64,000 bases of DNA. It comes from Planctomycetota bacterium (GTDB taxonomy: Bacteria; Planctomycetota; UBA8108; UBA1146). Below the pieces are notes generated by a model that saw only the letters and a list, made by a program, of their open reading frames with translations, had not been told where the DNA came from and did not search any database. The stretch spans positions 112,122 through 176,121 of the forward strand of contig JAYZTT010000016.1 in the NCBI GenBank assembly GCA_036125855.1, read 5' to 3'. A program made the translations under genes and the position numbers. Of the stretch, positions 15,877-53,411 are shown piece by piece (within the stretch, counting starts at the first letter, position 1; the number at the start of each line of letters is the position of its first letter).

Positions 15877-18327
15877 TCACCCTTGCGTTTCGCCTTTTTC
15901 TGGTTCTTCTGCCGCAACTTCAACAAGCTCCATGCCGATGACAGCATCTCCATCCTTGACGCTGATCAGTCGCACACCTTGAGTGTTACGGCCGATTGGG
16001 CGCACATTCTCCAGCGAAATCCGAACCAGCATCCCGCCAGATGTCATCAACATTGCATCGCGGTCCCCGGAGAGAACACAGGCAGAAACAACCTTGCCGT
16101 TTCTCTTGGTCGTTCGAATGTCGATGAGGCCCTTGCCGCCACGTTTCTGGGCACGGTATTCGGTAAAGAGAGTTTTCTTGCCAAAACCATGCTCGCAAAC
16201 CGTTAGCAGAGATCCTTCATCATCCACTACCGCCATCGAAACCACACAATCCCCTGCTCCAAGAGCGATCCCGTTGACACCGGCAGCATCCCGACCCATC
16301 GGCCGCACGTCGTGTTCGGAAAAACGAATCGACATCCCGGACGCCGTGGAAAGCACCACCTCGTCCTCTCCGGATGTGATGGTGACCCCGATCAACTCGT
16401 CCTCATCGTTGATTTTTATCGCCTTGATACCGGTTCTCTTCGGCCGAGAGTAGGCAACGAGGGGTGTTTTCTTGACCTTTCCGAGGCGGGTAGCAAACAG
16501 CAACTGGCGGTCATCGAAATTGACCACACGGATCATGCGCAGGATCTTTTCTTCCTTTTCAAGCTCCAGCAGATGCACCACGGGTTTCCCCCGTGCAGTT
16601 CGAGCGAGATCAGGCAGTTCATACACCTTGAGCCAGTAAACCTTACCCCGGTCAGAGAAAAGGAGCAGCGTGTCGTGAGTCCCCGCCACGAACAGATTTT
16701 TGACAAAATCATCTTCGCGGACAGTTCCTCCGGAGACTCCCTTGCCGCCACGTCCCTGTGACTTGTAGGTAGTCAGGGGGGTTCGTTTGACAAAACCCTG
16801 ATGGGTCAAGGTGACGACAACGTCTTCCTCGGCGATCAGGTCGGCGTAATTGATCTCCTCGGCCGCCTCTTCGATAGCGGTTCTTCGGGTGTCCTTGAAG
16901 CGGTCGCGTAAATCGTGAATATCTTCCCTGATGATCTCCGTAACCACGCCCTCATCGGTAAGAACCCTGCGATGGTATTCAATCTCTTCGCGTGTTTCTC
17001 CAAGGTCCCCCTGGAGCTTCTCGCGTTCCAGCCCGGTCAGTCGGCGAAGCTGCATCCGGAGAATGGCATCGGTCTGAATCCGTGTCAGCGCAAACTCAGA
17101 CATCAGAGCGCTACGCGCATCGTCTTCGCTGTGCTTAGAACGGATCAACTCAATCACGCGATCGATGTTGTCAGTAGCAACGATTAAGCCCTCAAGGATG
17201 TGCGCCTTGCGCTCCGCTTTTGCCAGAAGATGGCGAGATCGTCGCCGGATCACCTCGCGACGGTGATCTCTGTAAGCGCGGAGCAGGTCGAGCAGGCTGA
17301 GTGTTCGCGGCTTGCCTTCAACCAGGGCAATTTGCTGGACACCAAAGGTGGTTTGCAGCTGGGTGTGTTTGAAGAGCTGGTTCAGGATGACTTGTGCGTT
17401 CTCATCCTTTTTCAGCTCGACCACCAGTCGAATGCCGGTCCGGTCTGATTCGTCTCGAATATCGGAAACGCCGGTGAGACGCCCATCTTTCACCAGACCC
17501 GCAATGTCGGTGGCGAGCTTCGCCTTGGAAACCTGATAAGGAATCTCCGTGATGACGATGGCTTCTTTTTTCTTGGTCATTTCTTCGAAATGAGTTTTCG
17601 CTCGCAGGGTGAGCAATCCTCGACCCTTGCTGTAAGCATCCAGGATGCCGCGGCGACCGCAAATCACACCGCCGGTCGGGAAATCAGGGCCTTCGATCAC
17701 CTCGAGCAGGTCCTGCAACTGCACGTCAGGGTTGTCGAGCAACATCAGCAGCGCGTTGCAGGTTTCCTGCAGATTGTGAGGGGCGAAGTTGGTCGACATT
17801 CCAACTGCGATCCCGGAACCACCATTGACCACCAGGTTGGGAAACTTGGCCGGCAAGACGGTGGGCTCATCGCGTGTATCATCATAGTTGCGAATGAAAT
17901 CGACGGTCTCCTTGTCGATGTCTGCGAGCATCTCCGTCGAGGCTTCGGTCATGCGAGCCTCGGTGTATCTCATCGCCGCAGGGGGGTCGCCATCGATCGA
18001 TCCAAAGTTGCCCTGCCCATCGACCATCGTCTGGCGCATATTGAAGGGCTGTGCCATCCGGACAAGGGTTGGATAAATCACCGACTCTCCGTGAGGGTGG
18101 TAGTTACCGGAGGTGTCGCCAGCCACCTTTGCACACTTCCTGTGCTTGGAGCGAGGACCCAGGTTGAGATCGTTCATCGCAACGAGAATTCGCCTCTGAG
18201 ACGGCTTCAAACCATCCCGTACATCCGGCAGCGCCCGCTGGATGATGACACTCATGGCATAGGTGAGATACGAACCCTTCATCTCTTCTTCGAGTGAAAG
18301 AGGTTGGATCCTTTGTTCGTTCGTCAT
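15877..18327 (-). CDS. gyrA: DNA gyrase subunit A
   Basis: [30 protein letters not shown], the active-site region AAMRYTE, and C-terminal beta-pinwheel repeats. Confidence 0.97.
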
Positions 18328-18372
18328 CGTATTCGGTCTCCTGGTCAGTCAGCGCCTAGGCGCAAACATGTA

Positions 18373-19395
18373 TCAACAAGTTTCGTATGCAACTTCTGCC
18401 CTACGCACGAGCGCGGACAACAAGGTGTTTGCTGGCGAATCGAGGCCAGCCGATCCGAGCGCGCGCTCTATCGCTCCGCAAATCCAGTCGATTTCAGTTC
18501 TTCTCCCGGCTGACAGGTCTTGCAATGTCGAACAGCGATTGGGCGCAGTATCTCGACACAATTCCCTCAACAGCTGCTCCGGATCCACTCCAGAAAGAGC
18601 AACGCCCTGCACCGAAGCGGCCTGGCATCCCTCCCTGGCAGCCTCGACCGAGAGCGCAAAGGCTGGATGCTCGGGCAGCTCCCCATTCTTGCAGCCAAGC
18701 AGCGCCGCAACGGGATTGAGGCCCGCGTTCAACATCGCCTTTTTCCAGACCAGCGGACGCCCATCATCAACAACACGCGTCCGCAATCCGCCGCTGGCCA
18801 GGCGCAACGCCACCTGCGTTGCATCTTCTACCGCTGCTGGCTCGCCATTGCTGGTATCCAGCGGCCCGATGGCAATCTCTCCGCCATCCCCGCGCAACTG
18901 GACCGTTCCATCCGGTTCCGGGAGCAACCCGTAGGTCACCGTAGCGGCAACACACTTTTTCACACCGAGGTCACCGAGCGCTTGCTCATGTCCCAGGCCA
19001 TTGCTCAACACGGCGACGGTCCCACCATCCTCGACCAGAGGCGCGACCTCGCTCATTGCATCGGCAAGATCGGTCGCCTTGGTGCAAAGCAACACCAGGG
19101 GAAATACCCGGTCTCGCATCGAAGCTGCCGGGGCAGAGGGCACCGCAACGGTTCGTGCCGGTGGAACCGAGCCAGACGTCGTAGCGGACTCATCGTCCAG
19201 CAAATTGTTGTCCCTCACACAGCAGGTAGTCACTCCCGATGTGGTTCCGGGTCTCGTGACCAGGACCACATCGCCTGCCGACGAGCTCTGCCCGGAAACA
19301 ATCCTTGCGGCCAACCAGCGCCCCAGAGCCCCAGCTCCGACAATTGCGACATCGCACGACGGTCTATTCGGCTCTGGTGGGGACTCTTGCATCAT
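18373..19395 (-). CDS. panE: 2-dehydropantoate 2-reductase
   Basis: Rossmann motif VAIVGAGALGRWLAARI and the ApbA/PanE C-terminal segment STLQDLSAGRRTEIDWICGAI. Start moved to ATG 19395, just after the panB stop. Confidence 0.8.
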   Translation of the reverse strand: MMQESPPEPNRPSCDVAIVGAGALGRWLAARIVSGQSSSAGDVVLVTRPGTTSGVTTCCVRDNNLLDDESATTSGSVPPARTVAVPSAPAASMRDRVFPLVLLCTKATDLADAMSEVAPLVEDGGTVAVLSNGLGHEQALGDLGVKKCVAATVTYGLLPEPDGTVQLRGDGGEIAIGPLDTSNGEPAAVEDATQVALRLASGGLRTRVVDDGRPLVWKKAMLNAGLNPVAALLGCKNGELPEHPAFALSVEAAREGCQAASVQGVALSGVDPEQLLRELCRDTAPNRCSTLQDLSAGRRTEIDWICGAIERALGSAGLDSPANTLLSALVRRAEVAYETC

Positions 19396-19399
19396 CGGG

Positions 19400-20263
19400 C
19401 TACCCGCTAAGCTCTCGTTCGGGATCCTCTTCGCGCGAGCCCTCGACATCATCGGAGGCTGGCATCGAAAACGACTCCTTCGGCGAGGGAAACGCTCCAG
19501 AGCTCACGTCGCTACAAAACTGCTTCACCGCATCGCTCAGCAGTTGCTGTGCTTCCGCGTAACGACGAACGAATCGTGGCTGAAAGTCACCAGACAGGCC
19601 GACCAGGTCATGAAACACGAGCACTTGCGCATCCACTGCCGGCCCCGCGCCGATACCCACAACAGGGATCGACACCTTGCCCGTAATCGTCTCCGCCAGG
19701 GAAGCGGGAACACATTCAAGAACAAGGGAAAAGGCTCCCGCCTCCTCCAGCGCAATCGCGTCATCGACAATCTTCTGGGCCGAAGAGGCATCGGTTCCCT
19801 GCACACGATATCCGCCGAGCTGGGTGGCGTTTTGTGGTGTCAACCCTAGATGTCCCATCACCGGGATTCCCGCATCGACTATCTTCCTGACGGTCGATGT
19901 GCGCGGGCCACCACCCTCCAGCTTCACCGCATCGGCACCACCCTCCTGAACCAGCCGACCGGCGTTTCTTACCGCCTCCTCATCGTTCACCTGAACAGAA
20001 AGGAAGGGAAGATCGCCGATAACAAACAGTTCAGGCGCGCCTCGACGAACCGCTGCGACATGATGCACCATATGATCCATCGTGACGGGAATGGTGCTGT
20101 CGTATCCAAGAATGACATTACCAAGAGAATCGCCAACCAGGGCAACAGGAACTCCCGCCGCCGCGAGCACTTTTGCAGTGGGCGCATCGTAGGCGGTCAG
20201 GCACACCCAGGGCTGCCCCTGCTGCTTCCACCGCACCAAATCCTGCAAAGCTATCTTGGCCAT
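19400..20263 (-). CDS. panB: 3-methyl-2-oxobutanoate hydroxymethyltransferase
   Basis: LTAYDAPTAKVL..VALVGDSLGNVILGYDSTIPVTMDHMVHH, KLEGG and VMGHLGLTPQ. Confidence 0.93.
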   Translation of the reverse strand: MAKIALQDLVRWKQQGQPWVCLTAYDAPTAKVLAAAGVPVALVGDSLGNVILGYDSTIPVTMDHMVHHVAAVRRGAPELFVIGDLPFLSVQVNDEEAVRNAGRLVQEGGADAVKLEGGGPRTSTVRKIVDAGIPVMGHLGLTPQNATQLGGYRVQGTDASSAQKIVDDAIALEEAGAFSLVLECVPASLAETITGKVSIPVVGIGAGPAVDAQVLVFHDLVGLSGDFQPRFVRRYAEAQQLLSDAVKQFCSDVSSGAFPSPKESFSMPASDDVEGSREEDPERELSG

Positions 20264-20286
20264 CTTTTGACTTCCACTTCTCGCGA

Positions 20287-23125
<2,839 letters not shown>

Positions 23126-23129
<4 letters not shown>

Positions 23130-24271
23130 GCTTCCTGCATTTCGTTGATAACAAGGGGCATAACGATGTGTCTGTAGGAGTTTTCGTCATCTGGAATTGT
23201 GAAGAGCCCGGCGGTTTTCCCGTCACAGAAACAACACTGAACCTCTGTGGTGCCAACCACTTTTAATAACTCAATCAGATAGCCAGGGTTGAAGTGGATG
23301 ACGAAGTCATCATCCTCTCCTTCCTTCTTCTGGACAGGAAACTCGATGCGTGATTCCCCTATATTGCTCGCTGAGCTGGAGATGGTTGCCTGGTCCGAAC
23401 CGAAAACAAAACGTACAGAATTGGTTTCTTTTGTCGTCATGAGGGCTGCCTGGCGTAACGACACCAGTAGGTCTTCAGTTTTTATGACATAGACGCTTTC
23501 AAACTTTTGTGGGACTGCCCGCTCGTAATCGGGGAATTTCCCCTCAACGAGACGGCAAGTGAGTGACTCCTGGTCAGAGATATAAGTCACCTCGTTTTGA
23601 TCCAGGTGCAACACAACCGTTTCCCCGGCCTCGCTGGAGAGGATCTTCGAGAGTAGCTCAACCCCTTTCAGGGGAACCACAAACTGCCCCTCTGGTAGGC
23701 CGCCTTTGCCGGCAGCCGAGACGGCAAGAGAACTCATCGCCATCCTCTTCCCGTCGGTGCTCACAATCCGCAACTCTTCGCCCTGGCCATCAAAAAGAAC
23801 GCTGTGCATGTTGAAGCGAGTAGCATCTTTTGCCGCAGCAACGCTTACTCTTCTCAGGGTGTTCAGAAGTTCTTCTCTGGAAATCTGGATCGAGGCTCCC
23901 GGTGGAGAAAATTCGACTGTAGGGAATTCATCCAGTGGGCCGGTCGGTAATTTAAAATGCGCGGTCCCGGCGGAGATACATGCCTGCCCCGCTGCATCCA
24001 CTTCATAGGTAACTTCTTGTTCTTTAATCTCTCGCAAGATCGCTACCAGTCTTGCACAGGGAACCAGGCAGGCACCTTCCTGGTCGACCATCACCTCATC
24101 GACTTGAGTTTGAAGTCCCACTTCCAGATCGGTTCCAATAACCTGTAACCCATCGCGGGAAGCCTGTAGTTTTGCCGACTGGAGAACCGGACGGGTTGGA
24201 TTGCTGGGGACAACTCCTGCAACCAGGGAAACCGCTTCAAGAAGCTCGCGGGTGTGGCACTGAAATTTCAT
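23126..24271 (-). CDS. dnaN: DNA polymerase III beta sliding clamp
   Basis: MKFQCHTRELLEAVSLVAGVVPSNPTRPVLQSAKL...VIGTDLEV is a typical DnaN N-terminus, and the length fits three domains. Start at ATG 24271; the ORF is open to TTG 24292. Confidence 0.93.
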
Positions 24272-24292
24272 AAGACCTCTTTTGGTTTGCAA

Positions 24293-24925
24293 AGGTGCCC
24301 CCAGGAAGCTCTAGATGGCCTCTCACGCGGCACCTGGTTTCTGCTCGACGGGTTCTCTGGGTCCGTTCCCAAGAGAGGCTCCAAAAGTCGTCACACGGCC
24401 ACCCTGGAGCCTTGCAAATTTATTCCGGAACTACACTCTTTCCGACTCGCTGTTTCACCTTGAAATAAGCCCTTCAAAGCAACGCGATATTCTAGGTGAC
24501 ACAGGTACTGTGGGCAATCTGAAACGGGCCCAAAAACGGACTCATAAGCAGAAATAAACAAAGGGGTTACGAAGCTTTTTTCGAGCGGACTACCGATCCA
24601 AAAGGGGACCTCTGGAGAAGTAGATGAAAAGAGAATTAGATGAGAATTCTTAGTCTTTCATCATAGGCCCTGGGATAACCGTGGAAAACTTCAGAGTGCC
24701 CCTGTTTAACCCATGAAGCGAGAAGGACTTATAGATGGGAAATTTCAAGAAACGAGAGTGGAAAAAGGGACGGGTACCCGGGGGGTTTCGGTCGGAACGG
24801 GTTGGTTCTCCCCTGGCGGTGAAAAAAGAGCTCTTCAAGCCGTAATAATATCCGCCACGGAGAGACAGAGAATCACACAACCACCGACACCTTATCCACC
24901 ATGTATGAGCAAGCAGTGGCTCTCC
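24293..24925. other. Candidate oriC / DnaA-box-bearing AT-rich spacer upstream of dnaN
   Basis: About 630 bp non-coding. Locally AT-rich stretch around 24541-24665. DnaA-box-like 9-mers TTATCCACC (24892-24900), CGTGGAAAA (24680-24688) and AGTGGAAAA (24757-24765). TAGATGR occurs four times. Confidence 0.3.
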
Positions 24926-25867
24926 TCACAAGCCAGGCGGCGAGTTCTCTGGTAAGCCCTCATGCCACGTTTCATTCCTCACTGGTGCTACGAGCTGGGC
25001 GATCTGGTCGAGCAGCTCCGGGTCGATGGGGAGGTCCAGGACCGCGACGTTTTGTTGAACCTCCTGTGGGCTTTTCATGCCACAGAGGGTTGAGGCGATG
25101 TTGCTGTTGTCGAGAGCGAAACGAAGCGCCACCGAGCTGACAGAAGCGCCGTGTTGCTGGCAAAGCCGAGCGACCTCCTGGCCAATCCGGATGGTTTCTG
25201 TTGATGCTGGATGCCACGGTTGCGGACCGCTTGAGGAGAGGATTCCCATGTGGAGCGGGGAAGCGTTGATGATGCCAACCCCCTGTGCCTGCGCGGTGGG
25301 CACCAGTACTGTCTCCAGGTCGTCCACCATCAAATTGTAATGACAGTAAGAGAGCACGGTATCGACCGGAAATTCTGAAATCAAATCCCTCAACATCTGT
25401 ACCGGAAGCCCGGTAATCCCGACAAACCTTGCCTTGCCTGATTTTTTGATCTGTTCGATGGCGGGGAGGGTTTCCTCGAGAATCTGTTGTCGAGATCCAA
25501 ACTCAACATCGTGGACCTGAAACAGGTCAAGGTGGTCTGTCTGGAGCCTTTTGAGGCTGTCGTCGACGTCGCTCTGAACCCGGGCTGCGCTGAAGTCAAA
25601 GCCGCGGTGGCCGAAGCGACAGCACTTGGTGGCGAGGAACACCTCATCTCTGCGCCCCTTCAGCGCCTTCCCGAGGCGCTCTTCCGCGAGGGTCAGGCCA
25701 TAATAAGGGGCCACATCGACCAGGTTAATTCCAGCATCGATGGCCGCGTTGAGCGTGGCCACCCCTTCTTGTTCGGTGATGTTGCCGTACAGATCGCCGA
25801 GTGGTGCACAGCCAAAACCAAGCACGGATACCTCAACACCCGTGGTACCGAGAGGGCGTTTTTTCAT
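24926..25867 (-). CDS. Aldo/keto reductase
   Basis: MKKRPLGTTGVEVSVLGFGCAPLG, DVAPYYG and VFLATKC form an AKR-family signature. Confidence 0.9.
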   Translation of the reverse strand: MKKRPLGTTGVEVSVLGFGCAPLGDLYGNITEQEGVATLNAAIDAGINLVDVAPYYGLTLAEERLGKALKGRRDEVFLATKCCRFGHRGFDFSAARVQSDVDDSLKRLQTDHLDLFQVHDVEFGSRQQILEETLPAIEQIKKSGKARFVGITGLPVQMLRDLISEFPVDTVLSYCHYNLMVDDLETVLVPTAQAQGVGIINASPLHMGILSSSGPQPWHPASTETIRIGQEVARLCQQHGASVSSVALRFALDNSNIASTLCGMKSPQEVQQNVAVLDLPIDPELLDQIAQLVAPVRNETWHEGLPENSPPGL

Positions 25868-25965
25868 GGTGCTCCCGTCGTCGTTGGTGGGGCGCGCACA
25901 GCCAGGCCTGGCGGGCGTGTGGATATATCGTGGTGACCGAGAGAGCGATTGTCGAGAAAAAACAA

Positions 25966-27315
25966 TCAGCCTTGTCGCAGCTGTCCTTCCATCGCCTCGA
26001 CATTACCGCGCAGCTGGGCATCCTGCTCGACACACTGGCGGATTTTTTCGATGGAGTGGAGGACTGTTGAGTGATCTCGACCACCAAAGTACTGGCCAAT
26101 CTCTCCCAACGAGCAGCCGGTGAGGCGGCGTCCCAGATACATACAAACCTGACGCGGAAGAACAATCGAGCGCGTGCGCCGGGGAGAGTGCAGGTCTTCC
26201 GAGGAAACAGAAAATTCGAGAGAAACAAGCTCTTCGATCTTGCGAAGGTCGATTCTCGAAGACCCTCCACCGAGTAAATCATCCAGCGTCGTGTTTACTG
26301 TCGAGACCGTGATGGGGAGGTTTTCGTGGCGCGCCATGCTTTCAATTCGAAGCACCGCCCCCTCCAGTTCTCGGACGTTATCGTGAATTCTCCTGGCGAC
26401 CACCTCCACCACATCTGGCGGAAGGTCGATCGCCCTGTGGTGTGACTTGGCGTGGACGATGGCCATTCGGGTTTCAAGATCAGGAGGATCCATCTGGACC
26501 ACCAGGCCCAATCTGAAGCGAGAAACAAGCCTTTCGGAGAGTCCCTGGATTTCAGAAGGAGCGGCATCCGAGGTCAGGAAAATCTGGCTTTCCTGATTGT
26601 AGATTTCATTGAAGGTGTGAAAAAATTCTTCCTGGGTTCGCTCCTTGTCACACAGGAACTGGATGTCGTCGATCAGAAGGGCGCCAGCCTTCCGGTACTT
26701 GCTTCTGAATTCATCGATTTGTTTTGTTGAAAGAGCGGCGATGAATTCGTTGGTGAAGGAGGCGCAAGAAAGAGCGACCACGTTTTCTACACCGGAATTT
26801 TGAAGCCGGTGCCCGACCGCTTGAAGCAGGTGGGTTTTTCCAAGCCCCACAGACCCATGCAGAAAGAAGGGGTTGTAAGAACCCCCCGGGTTGTCTGCAA
26901 CAGCCATGGCGGCGGCGTGGGCCAGCTGGTTCGATGGGCCGGTGACAAACTCTTCAAAGGTCAGGCTTTTTTTCAGCGTCGCCTTGCGGCTGCTAACCGT
27001 CGGGATACGAACCTCGGGGCTGGGTGTTTCGATGGGGGCGGGCGGCGAGTTCGCTGTGTGCTTCACCTCAAAAACCAGGCTCGGGGCGGCATTCCCTTCT
27101 GTGAGTTCTTTGATGATCTTTTCGATGATGGCCTGGTACTGGTGCTGGAGATAGGTGGAGTGTAAAGACGAAGGGGATTTCAGCGCGAGGCTTTCTCCGT
27201 TATTGGCCAGCTCCACCTCTTCGAACCATGTCGACCATTGTTCTGATGGAACCCGGTCGCGCAATTCGCTCAAGACTCGCGCAGGGAGGGATTCATCAAA
27301 GGTCGATGAAATCAT
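25966..27315 (-). CDS. dnaA: Chromosomal replication initiator protein DnaA
   Basis: AAA+ Walker A GSVGLGKTHLLQAVGH, LLIDDIQFL, and the C-terminal DNA-binding helix GRDHSTVLHSIEKI. Start set to ATG 27315 because the longer ORF reads through the antisense of tRNA-Ser. Confidence 0.95.
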   Translation of the reverse strand: MISSTFDESLPARVLSELRDRVPSEQWSTWFEEVELANNGESLALKSPSSLHSTYLQHQYQAIIEKIIKELTEGNAAPSLVFEVKHTANSPPAPIETPSPEVRIPTVSSRKATLKKSLTFEEFVTGPSNQLAHAAAMAVADNPGGSYNPFFLHGSVGLGKTHLLQAVGHRLQNSGVENVVALSCASFTNEFIAALSTKQIDEFRSKYRKAGALLIDDIQFLCDKERTQEEFFHTFNEIYNQESQIFLTSDAAPSEIQGLSERLVSRFRLGLVVQMDPPDLETRMAIVHAKSHHRAIDLPPDVVEVVARRIHDNVRELEGAVLRIESMARHENLPITVSTVNTTLDDLLGGGSSRIDLRKIEELVSLEFSVSSEDLHSPRRTRSIVLPRQVCMYLGRRLTGCSLGEIGQYFGGRDHSTVLHSIEKIRQCVEQDAQLRGNVEAMEGQLRQG

Positions 27316-27491
27316 GAAAGCCTTTCGGGATGGTAAGTAGCTGAGTGCCCGAGGTGATTCAGGAGGGTAACGAGACGAGTACCACATCCGCAAGGGGCTC
27401 TTACTTACCTTGTCGGGCTTGCCGAGTCGTGGAGTGGCGGCTAGCATTGTCGATCCTTCCGGGAGACTGGACCACACCTGAAAAGGGTCAC

Positions 27492-27583
<92 letters not shown>

Positions 27584-37440: not shown

Positions 37441-37492
37441 ATCGCGGGTTCGGGAATTTCCCGCACCTGTCCTTTTTTTGAGGAGTGGATCG

Positions 37493-38614
37493 ATGGCGGC
37501 CGCTGACAAGGACACAGCTGATTTCCTCGAAAAGCCGATAGAGGGCCGCCTGGCTGATCGCTTGCAGGCGCTCGAGATGCGTTATGTCGAGCTGGAACAA
37601 TTGATCGGGGATCCGGAACAGCAGGCTGATCGGGCACGCTTTCAGGAAATGCTGCAAGAGCACGGCACAGCATCGGTCATGGTTGGACTGTATCGCGAGT
37701 ATTGCAAGATCGTCGCGGGTCTGGAGGAAGCCCGAACCATCATCGAAAGCGGTGAAGACGAAGATCTTCAAGAGCTGGCCCAGCTGGAGCTGGTGGATCT
37801 GACGGCGCAACAGGCATCCCAGGCACGGGCGGTACGGATGAACATTCTCGACCAGCAGGTCGAGGGCGGAGATGATTGCATATTTGAAGTTCGCGCCGGA
37901 ACCGGTGGCGACGAGGCGGCGCTGTTCGTCGCCGATGTTTTCAAGATGTACAGCCTCTACTCCGAGAAGAAACGCTGGAAGATCGAGGTCCTGAGCGAGA
38001 GCGCTACCGACCTGGGCGGATACAAGGAGATCACCTTCGCGGTCAGGGGTAAGGGTGCATTTTCACGACTCTGCTTCGAGTCGGGAGGACACCGGGTTCA
38101 GCGAGTTCCCTCAACAGAAGCGCAGGGACGTATCCACACCTCGGCGATCACGGTGGCAGTGATGCAGGAGGCAGAAGAAGCAGAGATTGAAATTGAAGAG
38201 AAGGACCTCCGAATTGACACCTTCTGCGCTTCTGGTCCCGGCGGCCAGTCCGTCAACAAAACCTCGAGTGCCGTTCGTATCACCCACACTCCCACCGGGG
38301 TTGTGGTTTCGATGCAGGATGAAAAATCCCAGCATCGCAATCGAGATAAAGCGATGAGGTTGCTAAAAACGCGCCTCAAGGAGCTCCAGGATCGCAAGAA
38401 GAGAGAGGAAGAAGATGCCTTGCGTCGTTCTCTCATCGGATCGGGAGATCGAAGTGATCGCATCCGAACTTACAATTTTCCACAGAACCGCATCACTGAC
38501 CATCGAATCAACTGCACCTTGTACAACCTCGATCGATTCATGTTGGGGGATATCGAGGAGATGGTCGACAGGCTCGACGCTCATGATCGTGAAGAGCGGG
38601 TCCAGGCTCTTTAA
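37493..38614 (+). CDS. prfA: Peptide chain release factor 1
   Basis: RF1 tripeptide region [17 protein letters not shown] and the GGQ motif [21 protein letters not shown] 37493 is preceded by AGGAGTGG. Confidence 0.95.
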
Positions 38615-39461
38615 GGTGTCAGAACAAAAACTCTCGTCGATAAAACTTCTCAAGCAAGCACAGGAATCCCTGGTCGACTCCGATGCTCCGCATCTGGATG
38701 CACGATGGATTCTGGCACACGTTCTGGAGAGGGATCACCGCGATGCTGCGCTGCGGTCGGAGCTGTGGCTTGGCACCGAGGAAGTGCGCTTGTTTGACGA
38801 GCTGTTGAAGAGACGAGCTGGCGGAGAACCGCTCGCCTACATCCTCAACGAATGGGAATTTTACGGCAACCGGATCGAGGTAACCCCCGCAGTGCTGGTG
38901 CCGCGGGCGGAGACGGAGCTGCTGGTGGAGTGGGCTCTTGAGCTGCTGGCTCCGATCCCGTCGCCGCGAGTGGCGGAAATTGGGGTCGGCTCTGGAGCCG
39001 TGGCAGTGGCTCTGGCGGTCGAGCGAGAGGACCTGTCACTGGTTGGCGTTGAAATCTCAGGAGAAGCGCTGGAGGTTGCCGATCGAAATGTCCATCAACA
39101 TGGGCTGGCGGATCGAGTTGACCTACGTCCGGGCAGTCACTTTGAGGCGCTGGATGGGGAATTCGAGCTGATCGTTGCCAATCCTCCCTACATCGCCGTT
39201 GGCGATCCCCTTGTGCAGGAAAGTGTGGCTCGGCATGAACCGGCCATCGCCCTGATCGACAACCTGGCCGGGGATGGCCTTGGCCATCACCGGGCTCTCA
39301 TCGAAGGATTTCGGGCCCATGTGAGCCCTGGCGCTGCCCTGTTGCTGGAATGTGGGTTTGACCAGGCTTCATCCATCGAGCAGTTCGCCAGCGAAAAGGG
39401 AATGAAAAGCAGTTCACGAGCCGATCTCGCAGGAATCCCCCGTGTGGTCCAGATCCGGTGA
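38583..39461 (+). CDS. prmC: Release-factor glutamine N5-methyltransferase
   Basis: [27 protein letters not shown], the SAM motif [11 protein letters not shown] and the catalytic IVANPPYI. Start ambiguous: either ATG 38583 or GTG 38616 directly after the prfA stop. Confidence 0.85.
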
Positions 39462-48083: not shown

Positions 48084-48689
48084 TTGAAAAGCTCTTGCTG
48101 GTGGAGTTCGGACAGTTCGGCCCTGGTTAAGATAGAAGAGCTGTCCCACGCCGTGAAGCTTCTGGAGGACTACCAGCCTGCCAACGAATTTCAGTCGGCG
48201 GAGAAAAACAAAATTCTATCCTTTTGCCAGGAACACCCGGATGCGCTGTATCGATCATGCCTGCTCGGTCATCTCACAGCTTCTGCAGTGGTGACCGATC
48301 CAGCAAGAGAAAGATTCCTGCTCCATCATCATGCCAAGCTGGATCTGTGGCTTCAATTTGGCGGACATTGCGATGGCGATGGGAATTTACCTCATGTTGC
48401 ATGGAGAGAAGCCGTTGAAGAAAGCGGAATTTCTGACCTTGCGATAGATCCCGAGATTGTCGATCTCGATGTTCACAAGATTCCGAAATGGAAAGATGTG
48501 CCAGAACATCTCCATCTTGATGTGCGATTTCTTGCTGAGGTGCCAGCAGCAAGCGTTCCTGTTGCTGGTGATGAATCCCTGGCCATCGGATGGTATTCAC
48601 TGACCGATGTGGCGAACATCAACACCGATGATTCTGTTCAACGGTTGGTCAGGCTGGCAGCCAATTGTGGAGGACAAGGTGAGCTATAA
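48084..48689 (+). CDS. NUDIX hydrolase
   Basis: Nudix-box-like GGHCDGDGNLPHVAWREAVEESGI. Start uncertain. Confidence 0.7.
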   Translation: MKSSCWWSSDSSALVKIEELSHAVKLLEDYQPANEFQSAEKNKILSFCQEHPDALYRSCLLGHLTASAVVTDPARERFLLHHHAKLDLWLQFGGHCDGDGNLPHVAWREAVEESGISDLAIDPEIVDLDVHKIPKWKDVPEHLHLDVRFLAEVPAASVPVAGDESLAIGWYSLTDVANINTDDSVQRLVRLAANCGGQGEL

Positions 48690-49140
48690 TTTCGACGGCA
48701 AGACCGGCACCCTGATCGTTCGGATCATATTGTTCAATTGCGCGTTATTTGTCTTGCTGGGCGGGATCGGTGCGGCGTTTTTTCTGCAACCAGATGAAAA
48801 TTCCTCCGGGACAGGGCTGGACTATTTAGAAGTGGTCACGGCTATTTTCAGCCCAATCGCGCTTGTTTCGGTCATTGTTGGCAAGGGCTATCTGGCTCGT
48901 TCCATGGAGTCTCGAAGTGGTGAATCGAAGGTACAGGTTTTTGTAGGTGGTACGGTGACTCTCATGGCCATTTGTGAGGCTCCCGGATTGCTTTGGGCAC
49001 TTTGTGCTTATCTAGCGAGCCAACCGTATTATGCAATCGGTTCGCTGGTTCACGCCCTCGCGATTCTGGTGTTGTGGCCGGATGGTTCCGAACTGGAAGA
49101 AGAGTTTGGTACAATGGCTTCAGAAGGAGTCGAAGAATGA
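48679..49140 (+). CDS. Hypothetical membrane protein (about 4 TM)
   Basis: GTG 48679 is preceded by GGAGGA. Hydrophobic helices are present, and the stop forms an ATGA overlap with the peroxiredoxin start. Confidence 0.5.
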   Translation: MSYNFDGKTGTLIVRIILFNCALFVLLGGIGAAFFLQPDENSSGTGLDYLEVVTAIFSPIALVSVIVGKGYLARSMESRSGESKVQVFVGGTVTLMAICEAPGLLWALCAYLASQPYYAIGSLVHALAILVLWPDGSELEEEFGTMASEGVEE

Positions 49141-49700
49141 TTCAGAACAGATCTTCAAGGGTAATAACGGTATTGGGAGGAGTCCTGGCCATCGGAATTT
49201 TAAGCAACCTGTTCACAATGGGTTCTTCGGCGGTACAGCCGCTCAAGATTGGCGATGTGGTGCCGGATCTGGTGTTGCCGGGTTCCGATGGGGAGAGCCA
49301 CTCATTGCGCAAAATTGTCGCTGACGGAGAAGGTCTGGTGATTGCCTGGATTCCAAGGACAGGAACGCCTGGCTGAACTACTGAATGTAAATCGCTGCGT
49401 GACAGCGCCGAGGAGATAGCAAAGTATCGGGTCAGAATGTTCGTGATTTCTTGTGACTCTGTCGAGAAGAGCAAGAAGTTTGCAGAAAAATTACAGCTAC
49501 CGTTTGCAGTGCTTTCAGATTCCGAGAGAAAGGCAGCCAAGGTCTTTGGTGTTGACCGGGCTTTGGGCCTGTCAAAACGCCACACCTTCTATTTTGGACC
49601 GGAAGGAAAACTGCGTTTCATTGATAAGGCTGTCGAGGTGGCCCAACACGGTTCTTCGGTAGCCGAGAAATTGAAGGAGCACCGCATCCCTCTGCGGTAA
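49137..49700 (+). CDS. bcp: Membrane-anchored Bcp-type peroxiredoxin with in-frame TGA (49374-49376) at the peroxidatic Cys position; probable selenoprotein
   Basis: Track ORFs 48993..49376 and 49437..49700 share one frame. The joined read is ...LVIAWIPRTGTPG-TGA-TTECKSLRD...LPFAVLSDSERKAAKVFGV..., which parallels the Bcp active site TPGCTxxxC. A hairpin lies downstream of the TGA. Confidence 0.75.
49393..49407 (+). promoter_or_regulatory. SECIS-like hairpin downstream of the peroxiredoxin UGA
   Basis: CGCTG-CGTGA-CAGCG: a 5-bp stem with loop CGUGA. The stem starts 16 nt after the UGA. Confidence 0.45.
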
Positions 49701-50623: not shown

Positions 50624-52717
50624 ATGGATTGGTTAGTAGATATGGGTATGAACAGAAGAGAGCTGCTTCGGGGTGCTTTAGCTGCGGGCGCGATCGGGGC
50701 AACCAGTCCTTTCCTTGGAAATAAAAAACTCCAGGCTGGAATGTTTGGTTACGAATCGTTTACTCAGCCATTGTTCAGGCCGCCGGTGATCGGTAAGACT
50801 GAATCCCTGAACCCAGCGCCAGGTAGTGATGATGCAATCGTCGGTTCCGATGCGATTTATCACGGGATTGCTCCTGAGTATTACCCCGACCATCCAGCAC
50901 ATCTCGAAGACTGGGATCGATTCCCGGAAATCTATTGGGAAATGGATTCCGTGGAAACACATTGGCAGTTCTTTCCAGGGATTGACACTCCGGTATTCGC
51001 CTACAAGGGGAAGGAGGGGACTGCATCGGTGACCCCACCGAGTTTCCCTGGTCCGACCTTCATAGCAAGAAATGGAGAGCCTGCAGTTCTCCGGTTCCAC
51101 AACAAGACATCGGTTGAGAATTCGATTCATTTACACGGTGATCACGGTCCAGCACACTCTGACGGTCACCCTGATTTTTATGTGCTGCAGGATAAGGTCA
51201 GGGATTATTACTATCCGAACATTGGCCCGCGCCACAATGTTACAGCCGATGTTCCATTTCCCGAGACCCCGGAAGAAGCGGGACCATTTGAGGAAGGTCA
51301 CATACCAACAACGATGTGGTATCACGATCATGCGATGGACGTGACTGGCTTCAACGTGAATCGAGGCCTGGCTGGATTCTATCTGTGTGAGGATGATCTA
51401 GAAATCGAACACCAGGAAAGCGGTTTCCTTCCGAAGCTTTATGGCAACTTTGACCACGTGATTGCCTTGAAGGATTTCCAGTTCAATAGCGATGGAACTC
51501 TTCAGTATGATCTTCTTGATCACAATGGCCATATCGGCGATGTGAAAACAGTTAATGGCCGTGCTCAGCCGTACATGGATGTTTATCGTCGAAAGTATCG
51601 CTTCCGTTTCCTTAACGCATGCAATGCACGCTATCTCCATCTTCGGCTCAACAGCAGGACCGGAAGAAGACAGAGGGATGGAATACCCTTCCTGATGATC
51701 GGCAAGGACACCTGGGAAATCCCAGAGGCCACGGAAATGGACAGCTTTACCATCTGTCCAGGCGAACGCTTCGACATGATCATTGATTTCAGCGAGCTAC
51801 CCGAGGACGTTGACACTTACTACCTGCAGAACGTGATGCATCAAACTGATGGCCGTAAACCCAAGGGCATTCGTCCCAAAAAAGAGCATACCCCCTGGCT
51901 TCAATTCCGTATTTTGGAGGGTGACCCACCTGGACCACAGGAGATCGAAGGTGTTGAAAACGGTGTCTACTCGGTATCGGCAGGAGACCATGTCAGGGAG
52001 TTCACTCCTTACCTCGAAGAAGAAGTGGTTCAGACACGAATATTTAAATTCCATCGCCGTAACGGAGCTTGGCAGGTCAATGATAAGTACTTCAGCCCAC
52101 GCCGAACCGACGCGACCCCGCTGCTGAATAGCTGTGAGCGCTGGATCTTCGAAAATGGCGGCGGAGGATGGTGGCATCCGATCCATATGCATCTGGAAGC
52201 TCTTCAGGTGCAGAAGTGGGATGGAATGACCAAGGATGATCCAGATTTCCCGGTTGGATACAGGTGGAATACCGACCTCGTGAACCTTGAAGGGGGAACC
52301 GAGGTTGAATGCCTGGTCAAGTTCCGCACCTTTAAGGGACCATTTGTTTGCCATTGTCACATCATTGAACATGAAGATATGAGAATGATGTTTACCCACG
52401 ATCCGCGCGAGGCAGGCGAAGCGGGCATGAATGACGGAATCAGAAACCACGCCTGGAACGAAGAAAGTAAGTTGCAGTCTGGAATGCCGACCGGTTGTAT
52501 CGATCCCCACCATCTGTTGTTCGATCACGAACAAACGCTGGCCAGCGGTGAAGTGGTTGGCCCCGGCGATGTTCCGCAACTTGATCATGAAGGAGTCGGA
52601 TTCCCCGGTGATTTCCATGATGATATCTGCGAGGTCGACGGTGGAGACTGGGATGCGGAAGGGAATCAGGATACTCCGGATGATCCGATCCCAGAGGAAC
52701 AAGAAGATCGGCGCTAA
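50624..52717 (+). CDS. Tat-exported multicopper oxidase
   Basis: Twin-arginine signal MNRRELLRGALAAGAIGA. The four copper-ligand motifs are IHLHGDH, WYHDHAM, WWHPIHMHLE and HCHIIEHEDMRMM. Confidence 0.88.
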   Translation: MDWLVDMGMNRRELLRGALAAGAIGATSPFLGNKKLQAGMFGYESFTQPLFRPPVIGKTESLNPAPGSDDAIVGSDAIYHGIAPEYYPDHPAHLEDWDRFPEIYWEMDSVETHWQFFPGIDTPVFAYKGKEGTASVTPPSFPGPTFIARNGEPAVLRFHNKTSVENSIHLHGDHGPAHSDGHPDFYVLQDKVRDYYYPNIGPRHNVTADVPFPETPEEAGPFEEGHIPTTMWYHDHAMDVTGFNVNRGLAGFYLCEDDLEIEHQESGFLPKLYGNFDHVIALKDFQFNSDGTLQYDLLDHNGHIGDVKTVNGRAQPYMDVYRRKYRFRFLNACNARYLHLRLNSRTGRRQRDGIPFLMIGKDTWEIPEATEMDSFTICPGERFDMIIDFSELPEDVDTYYLQNVMHQTDGRKPKGIRPKKEHTPWLQFRILEGDPPGPQEIEGVENGVYSVSAGDHVREFTPYLEEEVVQTRIFKFHRRNGAWQVNDKYFSPRRTDATPLLNSCERWIFENGGGGWWHPIHMHLEALQVQKWDGMTKDDPDFPVGYRWNTDLVNLEGGTEVECLVKFRTFKGPFVCHCHIIEHEDMRMMFTHDPREAGEAGMNDGIRNHAWNEESKLQSGMPTGCIDPHHLLFDHEQTLASGEVVGPGDVPQLDHEGVGFPGDFHDDICEVDGGDWDAEGNQDTPDDPIPEEQEDRR

Positions 52718-53411
52718 ATTGCGGAGTTTACTGCTGCTGCTGATCCTGATAGCAAATTTGTTTGGATGTAATTTACCAGACAGAGCAGATCTTTCTCCGG
52801 CAACCATCGAGCAATCGCTCGATGTGTTGTCGGAGGAAATTCCTTTTATCGACAAAGCTGCACGAGCCAAACCACATCCCGGTGCACGAGGTCGTTACTC
52901 TGATAAATTCCCCGACACGGTGCTGACCGATCATCTGGGCCGAAAACACCGCTTCTATAGTGATCTGGTGAAAGATCGAATAGTCGCCATCCAGTTTTTC
53001 TACACGACCTGTAGCGGTATATGACCAGGTGTAACAGAGAACCTCGTGAAGGTTCATGAAATGTTCGGAGAGCGCCTTGGCAAGGACATGGTTTTTCTTT
53101 CCATCTCCATCGATCCAGAACAAGACACCCCGAAGGCATTGAAGGAATACCGCAGCTACGGTGATGAGAACTGGAACGGTTGGCTACACTTGACGGGTGA
53201 TTACGATGAAATTGAAACCCTACGGTGGGTTCTGGGGGTCTACGACATGGATCCAGTTCTTGATTCTGACAAAACGGAACACGCTGGCATTCTTACCTTT
53301 GGTAACGATAAGACGAACTGGTGGGCGGCGGTGCCAGCCTTGATCGACCCGAAACAGGTTGCCGACGCAATGATTCGCATTGTCGGGAATCCTAGGATGC
53401 AACCTCGTTGA
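52680..53411 (+). CDS. SCO1/SenC-like thioredoxin-fold lipoprotein with in-frame TGA (53022-53024) in the CxxxC motif (CxxxU); probable selenoprotein
   Basis: Track ORFs 52431..53024 and 53046..53411 share one frame. The joined read is ...IVAIQFFYTTCSGI-TGA-PGVTENL...VFLSISIDPEQDTPKALKEY...WLHLTG...TEHAGILTF, which parallels SCO F-T-x-C-x-x-x-C-P, SxDPxxDTP and the distal His. Lipobox LLLLLILIANLFGC. Start is ATG 52680 or TTG 52719. Confidence 0.7.
53039..53055 (+). promoter_or_regulatory. SECIS-like hairpin downstream of the SCO-like UGA
   Basis: GAACCT-CGTGA-AGGTTC: a perfect 6-bp stem with loop CGUGA. The stem starts 14 nt after the UGA. Confidence 0.5.

Follow-up and report, generated by a model that had tools for sequence, protein, structure and literature searches.

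This analysis concerns a gene at positions 49137-49700, on the plus strand, of a 64 kb stretch of DNA (64,000 nt of contig JAYZTT010000016.1, from a Planctomycetota bacterium; hereafter the window). The gene specifies a peroxiredoxin (Prx) of the PrxQ/BCP type, and its reading frame carries a TGA at the codon of the peroxidatic cysteine. It is very probably a functional gene encoding selenocysteine (Sec, U) at position 80 of its product. An earlier note, made from the letters of this DNA, had proposed selenocysteine at this codon, and the interpretation was supported, all but one of its sequence-level predictions having held. The window contains a second candidate of this kind, a gene of the SCO1/SenC family.

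The peroxiredoxin gene, its active site and its relatives

From the ATG at 49137-49139 to the TAA at 49698-49700 the gene forms a single frame of 187 codons with one in-frame TGA, at 49374-49376. The list of open reading frames (ORFs) cuts it into 48993..49376 and 49437..49700, both in the same frame, and the read-through product contains the segment ...IAWIPRTGTPG-U-TTECKSLRDS.... With cysteine substituted at the TGA, residues 38-161 matched positions 1-123 of the 124 of the Pfam AhpC-TSA profile (E 1.9e-27; 96.1 bits, cut-off 26). As this match runs across the TGA, the two "fragments" are one domain, and the claim of one gene in one frame was upheld from end to end of the profile. The start codon shares two letters with the TGA stop (49138-49140) of ORF 48607..49140, an upstream membrane-protein gene, to give the ATGA at 49137-49140 that had been described, and the two genes are probably co-transcribed. 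The hydrophobic anchor said to lie at the N-terminus was also found, as a segment that could be either a signal peptide or an anchor. The sequence just before the Prx domain carries positive charges, a hydrophobic core of 18 residues and a site of small residues (SSA), and in the gammaproteobacterial orthologues the equivalent place is taken by typical signal peptides of the AxA type. Taken together, these N-terminal features and the AxA sites of the orthologues suggest export to the envelope.

The TGA falls within ...PRTGTPG-U-T..., where it occupies the peroxidatic-cysteine position of the PxxxTxxC active-site motif, as the earlier note had argued. P73, T77 and U80 are invariant, and R148 (SKRHTF) aligns with the arginine of 5epf (VKRTTF) and 3drn (ARITF), the conserved catalytic arginine. 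The best 15 of the 20 closest PDB sequences were Dot5, PrxQ B and BCPs; the other five were of the Prx6, AhpC and Tpx types, with much weaker scores. The top NCBIfam matches were likewise Bcp and PrxQ, all of them below cut-off: the E. coli Bcp equivalog NF006960 (77.6 bits, cut-off 140), the Deinococcus PrxQ model NF053650 (68.4 bits, cut-off 260) and the PrxU equivalog NF040737 (34.2 bits, cut-off 270) were not reached. The description of the gene as Bcp-type was therefore sound at the level of the PrxQ/BCP subfamily, to which the nearest PDB and NCBIfam matches assign it, but not in the narrower sense of the E. coli Bcp equivalog. Judged by these matches, the gene is a distinct clade inside the subfamily and not an E. 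coli Bcp orthologue.

The resolving cysteine had been placed one residue too far downstream, at five residues. The retained Cys84 sits four residues past Sec (U-T-T-E-C), every Sec form has the arrangement U-x-x-x-C, and L043 (below), the one Cys form, likewise has its second cysteine at +4. In the alignment with M. tuberculosis PrxQ B (5epf, TPGCTKEAC), the +5 resolving cysteine of that protein stands opposite Lys85, not Cys84, and the alpha2-type CxxxxC spacing (resolving Cys at +5) is not present in the window protein.

Relatives were collected by a scan of one genome per GTDB species, which gave 177 related stretches, of which the best 80 were analysed, plus 19 metagenome contigs (L001-L019). 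The window's own species is not among the GTDB representatives, and the best representative match was 67% identical. At the codon in question 79 of the best 80 representatives and the 19 metagenome contigs have TGA, making 98 of the 99 related copies, and no copy, that of the window included, carried a frameshift or a second stop. Of these 79, about 23 are contigs of Planctomycetota type and 56 belong to Gammaproteobacteria (Pseudomonadales, Pseudohongiella, SAR86 and others). A Cys form (TGC) turned up just once among the relatives retrieved, at position 6235 of L043, a metagenome-assembled genome (MAG) of Acidobacteriota, and keeps the C-x3-C arrangement. Cysteine was also found opposite the TGA in P0005 and P0007 (TPGC) and in the PDB structures of BCP and PrxQ, which answers a check proposed with the original interpretation.

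A protein search yielded the close homologues P0001-P0004 only as C-terminal fragments of 102-106 residues (64-71% identity). In their contigs each fragment is preceded by an ORF of 62-79 residues in the same frame, which ends within 18 nt of the called start, and the genes are arranged as they are in the window (Pro_dh, NUDIX, small membrane protein, Prx). The gene was called as two fragments in contigs L001-L019 too, so that the expectation that gene callers would split it is borne out by public data. The DNA of four further lineages has an in-frame TGA at the identical codon.

Selection on the gene was assessed against ten Planctomycetota orthologues. Synonymous sites were saturated (pS 0.6-0.9), and the corresponding nonsynonymous value (pN) was 0.13-0.34 on both sides of the TGA, over 44 codons upstream and 100 downstream (nine gap-free comparisons). 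Both halves of the gene are under purifying selection. TGA is also the commonest ordinary stop in the window, where it ends 33 of 56 long ORFs, so any recoding must be site-specific and does not involve a change of the genetic code.

Three of the sequences retrieved were irregular. L024 and L038, labelled as a Bacillota MAG and as Verrucomicrobiaceae TMED86, have Prx copies 62% and 45% identical to that of the window and rank among the Planctomycetota-labelled contigs, and L038 also has the SCO-type TGA gene; both contigs may be mis-binned or mislabelled. The third, P0006 (an ENA contig of 1312 nt), specifies 126 residues, the first ~50 of which match the window Prx at 92% identity, while the rest is an unrelated DUF790-type sequence; it probably reflects a chimeric assembly or else a rearranged copy.

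Table 1. Features of the two candidate selenoprotein genes and of the genes next to them (window coordinates), with codon usage in the hairpin region of Sec-type Prx genes (codons numbered from the TGA)
Feature	Position	Strand	Basis or remark
Candidate selenoprotein gene, complete; PrxQ/BCP-type peroxiredoxin, predicted to be exported, with Sec80	49137..49700	+	single frame, Pfam, nearest PDB sequences
Predicted N-terminal signal peptide or anchor	49137..49232	+	MIQNRSSR + hydrophobic VITVLGGVLAIGILSNLF + TMGSSA; ends just before the Prx domain
Putative Sec-UGA at the peroxidatic-Cys position, PxxxTxxU (P73, T77, U80)	49374..49376	+	TGA in 99/100 copies, TGC in one
Cys84 (TGT), candidate resolving Cys at Sec+4	49386..49388	+	TGY in 81/81 distinct Sec forms
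SECIS-like hairpin	49393..49407	+	stem 49393-97 / 49403-07, loop CGUGA 49398-49402; 7-bp stem (equivalent to 49391-49409) in most relatives
Codon +6, Ala			GCG in 76/79
Codon +7, Leu			CTG or TTG only
Codon +8, Arg			CGT in 80/81
Codon +9, Asp			GAC in 81/81
Codon +10, Ser			AGY only
Small membrane-protein gene, upstream, true start uncertain	48607..49140	+	~4 hydrophobic segments; stop overlaps the Prx ATG
Multicopper oxidase gene, twin-arginine-like N-terminus (NRRELLRG)	50624..52717	+	Pfam Cu-oxidase_2, Cu-oxidase_3; between both candidate selenoprotein genes
Second selenoprotein candidate, SCO1/SenC family, N-terminal signal or lipoprotein-like sequence	52680..53411	+	TGA 53022-53024; hairpin 53039-53055

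The hairpin downstream of the peroxiredoxin TGA

The hairpin (CGCUG CGUGA CAGCG) has 5 bp in the window, and its loop starts after 21 nt from the UGA. A published model of the bacterial selenocysteine insertion sequence (bSECIS) specifies a loop of 3-9 nt, a stem of 4-16 bp, a UGA-to-loop distance of 16-37 nt and a minimum free energy (MFE) of -7.5 kcal/mol or below, with G in loop position 1 or 2 followed by G or U (PMC13188914). The loop of 5 nt with G2 and U3, the stem of 5 bp (7 bp in most relatives) and the 21-nt spacing all conform to these rules; the folding energy is taken up below.

The significance of the hairpin comes from comparison with relatives and not from thermodynamics. Across 81 distinct Sec-type sequences, normalised synonymous-codon entropy was 0-0.37 at codons +6 to +10, as against about 0.8-1.0 along most of the gene (codons in Table 1). 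For comparison, CGT makes up 18% of the Arg codons and GAC 40% of the Asp codons in the window's own genes. The motif CKALRDS, picked as the most conserved in the species scan, is encoded by this SECIS region. The family helix, GGCGYUG / CAGYGCC, is closed by the CGUGA loop (CGGGA in L022), and its stem cells were paired in 95.7% of cases, compared with 13-59% when the partners were slid by 1-3 columns. The same helix was predicted independently by RNAalifold. Variation in the stem consists mostly of wobble changes (G-C to G-U, C-G to U-G), together with one basal pair that changes from G-C to A-U in seven sequences. The codon UUG, which makes a U-G pair, occurred only beside a G-C neighbour and never with AGU, a combination that would place two wobbles in tandem (13:0). 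The hairpin is conserved at the RNA level.

In the Cys form of L043 the loop Arg codon is CGC, as against the CGT of nearly all distinct Sec forms. A Sec/Cys conversion accompanied by a relaxed constraint on the loop would fit this observation, although as a single sequence it is anecdotal. Two fragments of long non-coding RNAs were placed around the site by Rfam at permissive E-values only, and are meaningless.

A second candidate gene with the same loop

Every TGA with open flanks in the window was screened by tblastn against the related loci, with TGA read as a sense codon. Only those at +49374 and +53022 held up, the other matches being mostly off-frame or antisense echoes of real genes. 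An earlier screen for read-through genes by codon usage was not discriminating, and missed even the Prx gene. The TGA at 53022-53024 lies within FFYTTC-SGI-U-PGV, that is, CxxxU in place of the copper-binding CxxxC, and the match of the product to the Pfam SCO1-SenC profile crosses it (E 3.5e-18); the product had no NCBIfam hit. This TGA is kept in 12 Planctomycetota loci, and the Cys-type homologues have an invariant CxxxC with cysteine opposite it (8 aligned, 38-47% identity, of 173 retrieved).

The hairpin that follows, GAACCU CGUGA AGGUUC (53039-53055, loop 53045-53049), has a loop identical to that of the Prx gene and one nucleotide nearer the UGA, starting after 20 nt. Its six codons are invariant in 12 of 13 copies, whereas the four preceding codons vary freely at third positions. 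In L025 the loop is GGUCA, and a C-G pair of the stem has changed to U-G in compensation. An alternative hairpin with an AGGU loop, which is the minimum-energy fold, was rejected, its 3' arm not being conserved in L032, L035 and relatives. Over the whole window and both strands there are only two CGUGA-loop hairpins with at least 5 bp, those with loops at 49398-49402 and 53045-53049. Both loops lie 23-24 nt from the T of an in-frame TGA in a thioredoxin-fold gene, and shuffled sequences gave 0.09 such combinations of TGA and hairpin. Two unrelated thioredoxin-fold genes with TGA in place of a conserved cysteine, followed by the same loop at the same distance, are what a shared SelB recognition element predicts. 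Twelve further hits to the CGUGA signature in related loci, outside the Prx and SCO genes, were in stop-rich frames and look like chance, and a relaxed SECIS scan of the window gave no further credible selenoprotein.

The Prx gene lies ~3 kb upstream of the Tat-type multicopper oxidase and SCO-type genes, in the window as in about a dozen relatives. The 3' end of the oxidase gene overlaps the start of the SCO-type gene, and the two belong to a block (SRPBCC-like gene, multicopper oxidase, SCO-type gene, HEAT protein) which in the window is placed between the Prx gene and a Ser/Thr kinase gene. At least the SCO-type gene lies downstream of Prx in 12 relatives; the lineages of L001 and L007 are without the block. 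The products of the Prx, oxidase and SCO-type genes are all predicted to be extracytoplasmic. SCO1/SenC was not found as a selenoprotein family in three catalogues (PMC2398784, PMC9312934, PMC13188914), nor by full-text search. An apparently uncatalogued SCO1/SenC protein with Sec may be a more novel item than the peroxiredoxin, although absence from these papers is not proof. A wider reading, offered tentatively and as a possibility that we would not rate as the probable one, is that the exported U-x3-C Prx clade and the C-x3-U SCO1/SenC protein form an extracytoplasmic selenoprotein pair missed by the catalogues and served by the same CGUGA SECIS, with which marine Planctomycetota would place selenium in the envelope for peroxide and copper handling. 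If true, the SCO-type protein would represent a selenoprotein family that none of the three catalogues lists.

Interpretation and relation to known systems

For the peroxiredoxin we infer selenium insertion, SelB dependence, export, a role for Cys84 and a reductant as follows. The UGA at 49374 would be recoded by the CGUGA hairpin acting as a bacterial SECIS, which would recruit SelB-GTP with Sec-tRNA(Sec) in competition with release factor 2 (RF2). After export and cleavage of the signal peptide, the selenolate of Sec80 would reduce a hydroperoxide and become a selenenic acid. The invariant Cys84, one helical turn away, could then resolve this to an intramolecular selenenylsulfide, to be reduced in its turn by some thioredoxin-fold reductant of the envelope.

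Several observations weigh against a selenoprotein. Searches of the 64 kb window and of 1.58 Mb of related loci found no selA, selB, selD or tRNA-Sec gene: ARAGORN detected no tRNA-Sec in the window and 87 related loci, six-frame translations of the 1.58 Mb contained no credible signature motifs of SelD or SelA, the ~46 window ORFs scanned with Pfam included no sel genes, and at gathering thresholds Rfam matched neither a SECIS nor a tRNA-Sec family in the window. The window's hairpin is the weakest of its family. Its energy is -5.9 kcal/mol alone and -6.5 in a 47-nt context, above the -7.5 threshold, which relatives satisfy with -12.7 and -18.1, so that the window copy is marginal by a rule to which its family conforms, and its z-score of -1.44 alone becomes +0.66 to +0.68 in contexts of 47-67 nt, no better than shuffles. 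In this copy a Ser codon (TCG) replaces Ala GCG, and two basal pairs are lost as a result. Of what had been claimed for the hairpin, then, its existence and bSECIS-like spacing were verified, and its synonymous sites are conserved, but the copy in the window is weak, with 5 bp. True compensatory covariation is sparse, one pair showing G-C to A-U and the rest wobble; the conserved peptide KALRDSA itself fixes part of the stem; and a similar hairpin is kept in L043, which has Cys.

The same facts can be set against other explanations of the TGA. A peroxiredoxin gene killed by a nonsense mutation at its catalytic codon would, like this one, be given by gene callers as two fragments, and the hairpin of the window taken alone is thermodynamically unremarkable. 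Such a pseudogene is nevertheless extremely improbable. The identical TGA is found in all 98 related copies with a TGA codon, in two phyla and with no frameshifts or extra stops, so the search for decayed relatives that the earlier note had suggested gave only intact frames (98/98). Moreover, pN stays well under pS to either side of the TGA, despite saturated synonymous divergence, which for practical purposes excludes a pseudogene. A sequencing or assembly error in place of a true TGC or TGT, for which the single-base distance from TGA to TGY is the only argument, has a negligible probability, as the codon is TGA in every one of the independent assemblies, which come from many projects (JGI, ENA/Tara, Logan, NCBI MAGs, long-read complete genomes), and this agreement excludes it in practice.

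A genuinely split gene, in which a peptide of 79 residues and a separately initiated C-terminal polypeptide assemble together, would make use of the start codons found past the TGA (ATG 49437 in the window, various others in relatives). These starts vary in position and type, P0001-P0004 beginning at different residues and two of them with Leu codons, and the C-terminal part would be without a signal peptide while the N-terminal part is predicted to be exported. The catalytic residue would be missing as well, and the stop coincides exactly with the codon that is Cys in homologues, all of which makes a split gene highly improbable. Site-specific read-through that is independent of selenium, either by a near-cognate Trp, Cys or Arg with the help of the hairpin or by an unusual UGA suppressor, has in its favour that hairpins can stimulate read-through in some systems. 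It too is very unlikely: TGA terminates most genes here, and a residue at this position has to provide a redox-active chalcogen, as Trp, Arg or Gly would not. In composition and spacing the loop agrees with the SECIS model of the SelB type, an identical loop comes after a second TGA, which stands in for an invariant Cys that is metal- or redox-active, and the TGA form of the gene occurs in Gammaproteobacteria also.

Selenocysteine in place of the peroxidatic cysteine of a Bcp-type Prx is a principle already well known, and genes for selenoproteins of this kind are regularly split by gene callers. Peroxiredoxins with Sec make up an established selenoprotein family of prokaryotes (COG1225/Bcp, TxxU), shown experimentally in Eubacterium acidaminophilum (PMC9312934, PMC13188914, PMC2398784), and as PF00578 / COG1225 Bcp it has been catalogued by Zhang and Gladyshev and in later reviews (PMC1794560, PMC2398784, PMC9312934, PMC13188914). 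The Global Ocean Sampling data contained 253 Sec-Prx sequences, and Prx is among the most abundant marine selenoproteins (PMC2398784). The window clade resembles the catalogued family in its AhpC/TSA fold, the PxxxTxxU motif, the Sec/Cys pair with abundant Cys homologues, a SECIS hairpin within the coding sequence just downstream and its abundance in marine metagenomes. It differs in its predicted export, in the invariant Cys at Sec+4, in that no NCBIfam model reaches cut-off, and in being carried by marine Planctomycetota and Pseudomonadales-type Gammaproteobacteria. By sequence, the window Prx would be a further member of the known family, possibly representing a distinct exported U-x3-C clade.

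The closest Cys-type proteins were PrxQ/BCP enzymes (Dot5 2a4v, PrxQ B 5epf, Sulfolobus Bcp1 3drn, Aeropyrum 2cx3 and Xanthomonas 3gkk; E 9e-21 to 1e-11), which are monomer-type thioredoxin-dependent thiol peroxidases. The window protein shares with these, and with E. coli Bcp, the TPG-C/U-T motif, the conserved arginine and a similar length. It departs from them in having Sec for Cys, and the Sec-x3-Cys of this putatively exported peroxidase differs from the CxxxxC of 5epf, in which the resolving cysteine is at Cp+5 and not +4. These Cys-type enzymes are cytoplasmic, except that Dot5, of yeast, is nuclear, whereas the window protein has a predicted signal peptide. PrxU of Eubacterium acidaminophilum (NF040737), reportedly verified experimentally by Sohling et al. 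in 2001, is a bacterial peroxiredoxin with Sec as its peroxidatic residue and shares the same working principle. It is a cytoplasmic enzyme of an anaerobic Firmicute. The window gene is not its orthologue (34.2 vs 270 bits), and specifies a short, apparently exported protein of the BCP/PrxQ type.

A precedent for an envelope peroxiredoxin fed through a DsbD-like membrane transporter and a thioredoxin-fold relay is PprX of Caulobacter crescentus, which is reduced through ScsB/TlpA (PMC3322552). This route is a plausible model for the recycling of an exported window Prx, but PprX is a Cys enzyme, and no ScsB-, DsbD- or TlpA-type gene adjoins the Prx gene of the window. In Gammaproteobacteria the surroundings of the gene are not conserved and offered no hint of the reductant.

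Since the TGA that causes the split is present in 79 of 80 representatives, a catalytic selenoprotein has likely been missed systematically, and standard pipelines are unlikely to rescue the gene because no NCBIfam model reaches its cut-off. As a selenoprotein gene it would mark the window's Planctomycetota lineage as selenium-using. The putative lineage-specific SECIS signature (TGA, 14 nt, then a stem of 6-7 bp with a CGUGA loop) could help in finding the remainder of the selenoproteome.

The small membrane protein encoded upstream has a conserved E-x-x-G-L-L-W-A segment and no Pfam hit. The ATGA overlap with Prx is kept in the closer Planctomycetota relatives, and the distant ones are without the membrane-protein gene and have NUDIX directly before Prx. 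Being conserved only in nearer relatives, the membrane protein is therefore not an obligatory partner. Elsewhere in the window, 15877-27582 is the neighbourhood of a chromosomal replication origin, where dnaA, dnaN, gyrB and gyrA lie on the minus strand. For dnaA, the longest ORF (25966..27582) overlaps a tRNA-Ser(GCU) gene at 27492-27581, so the true dnaA start lies further downstream. At 37478-39461 a class-1 peptide chain release factor gene (PCRF and RF-1 domains) is followed by prmC, whose longest ORF (38415..39461) overlaps the release-factor gene by 200 nt, and the real prmC start is thus probably later.

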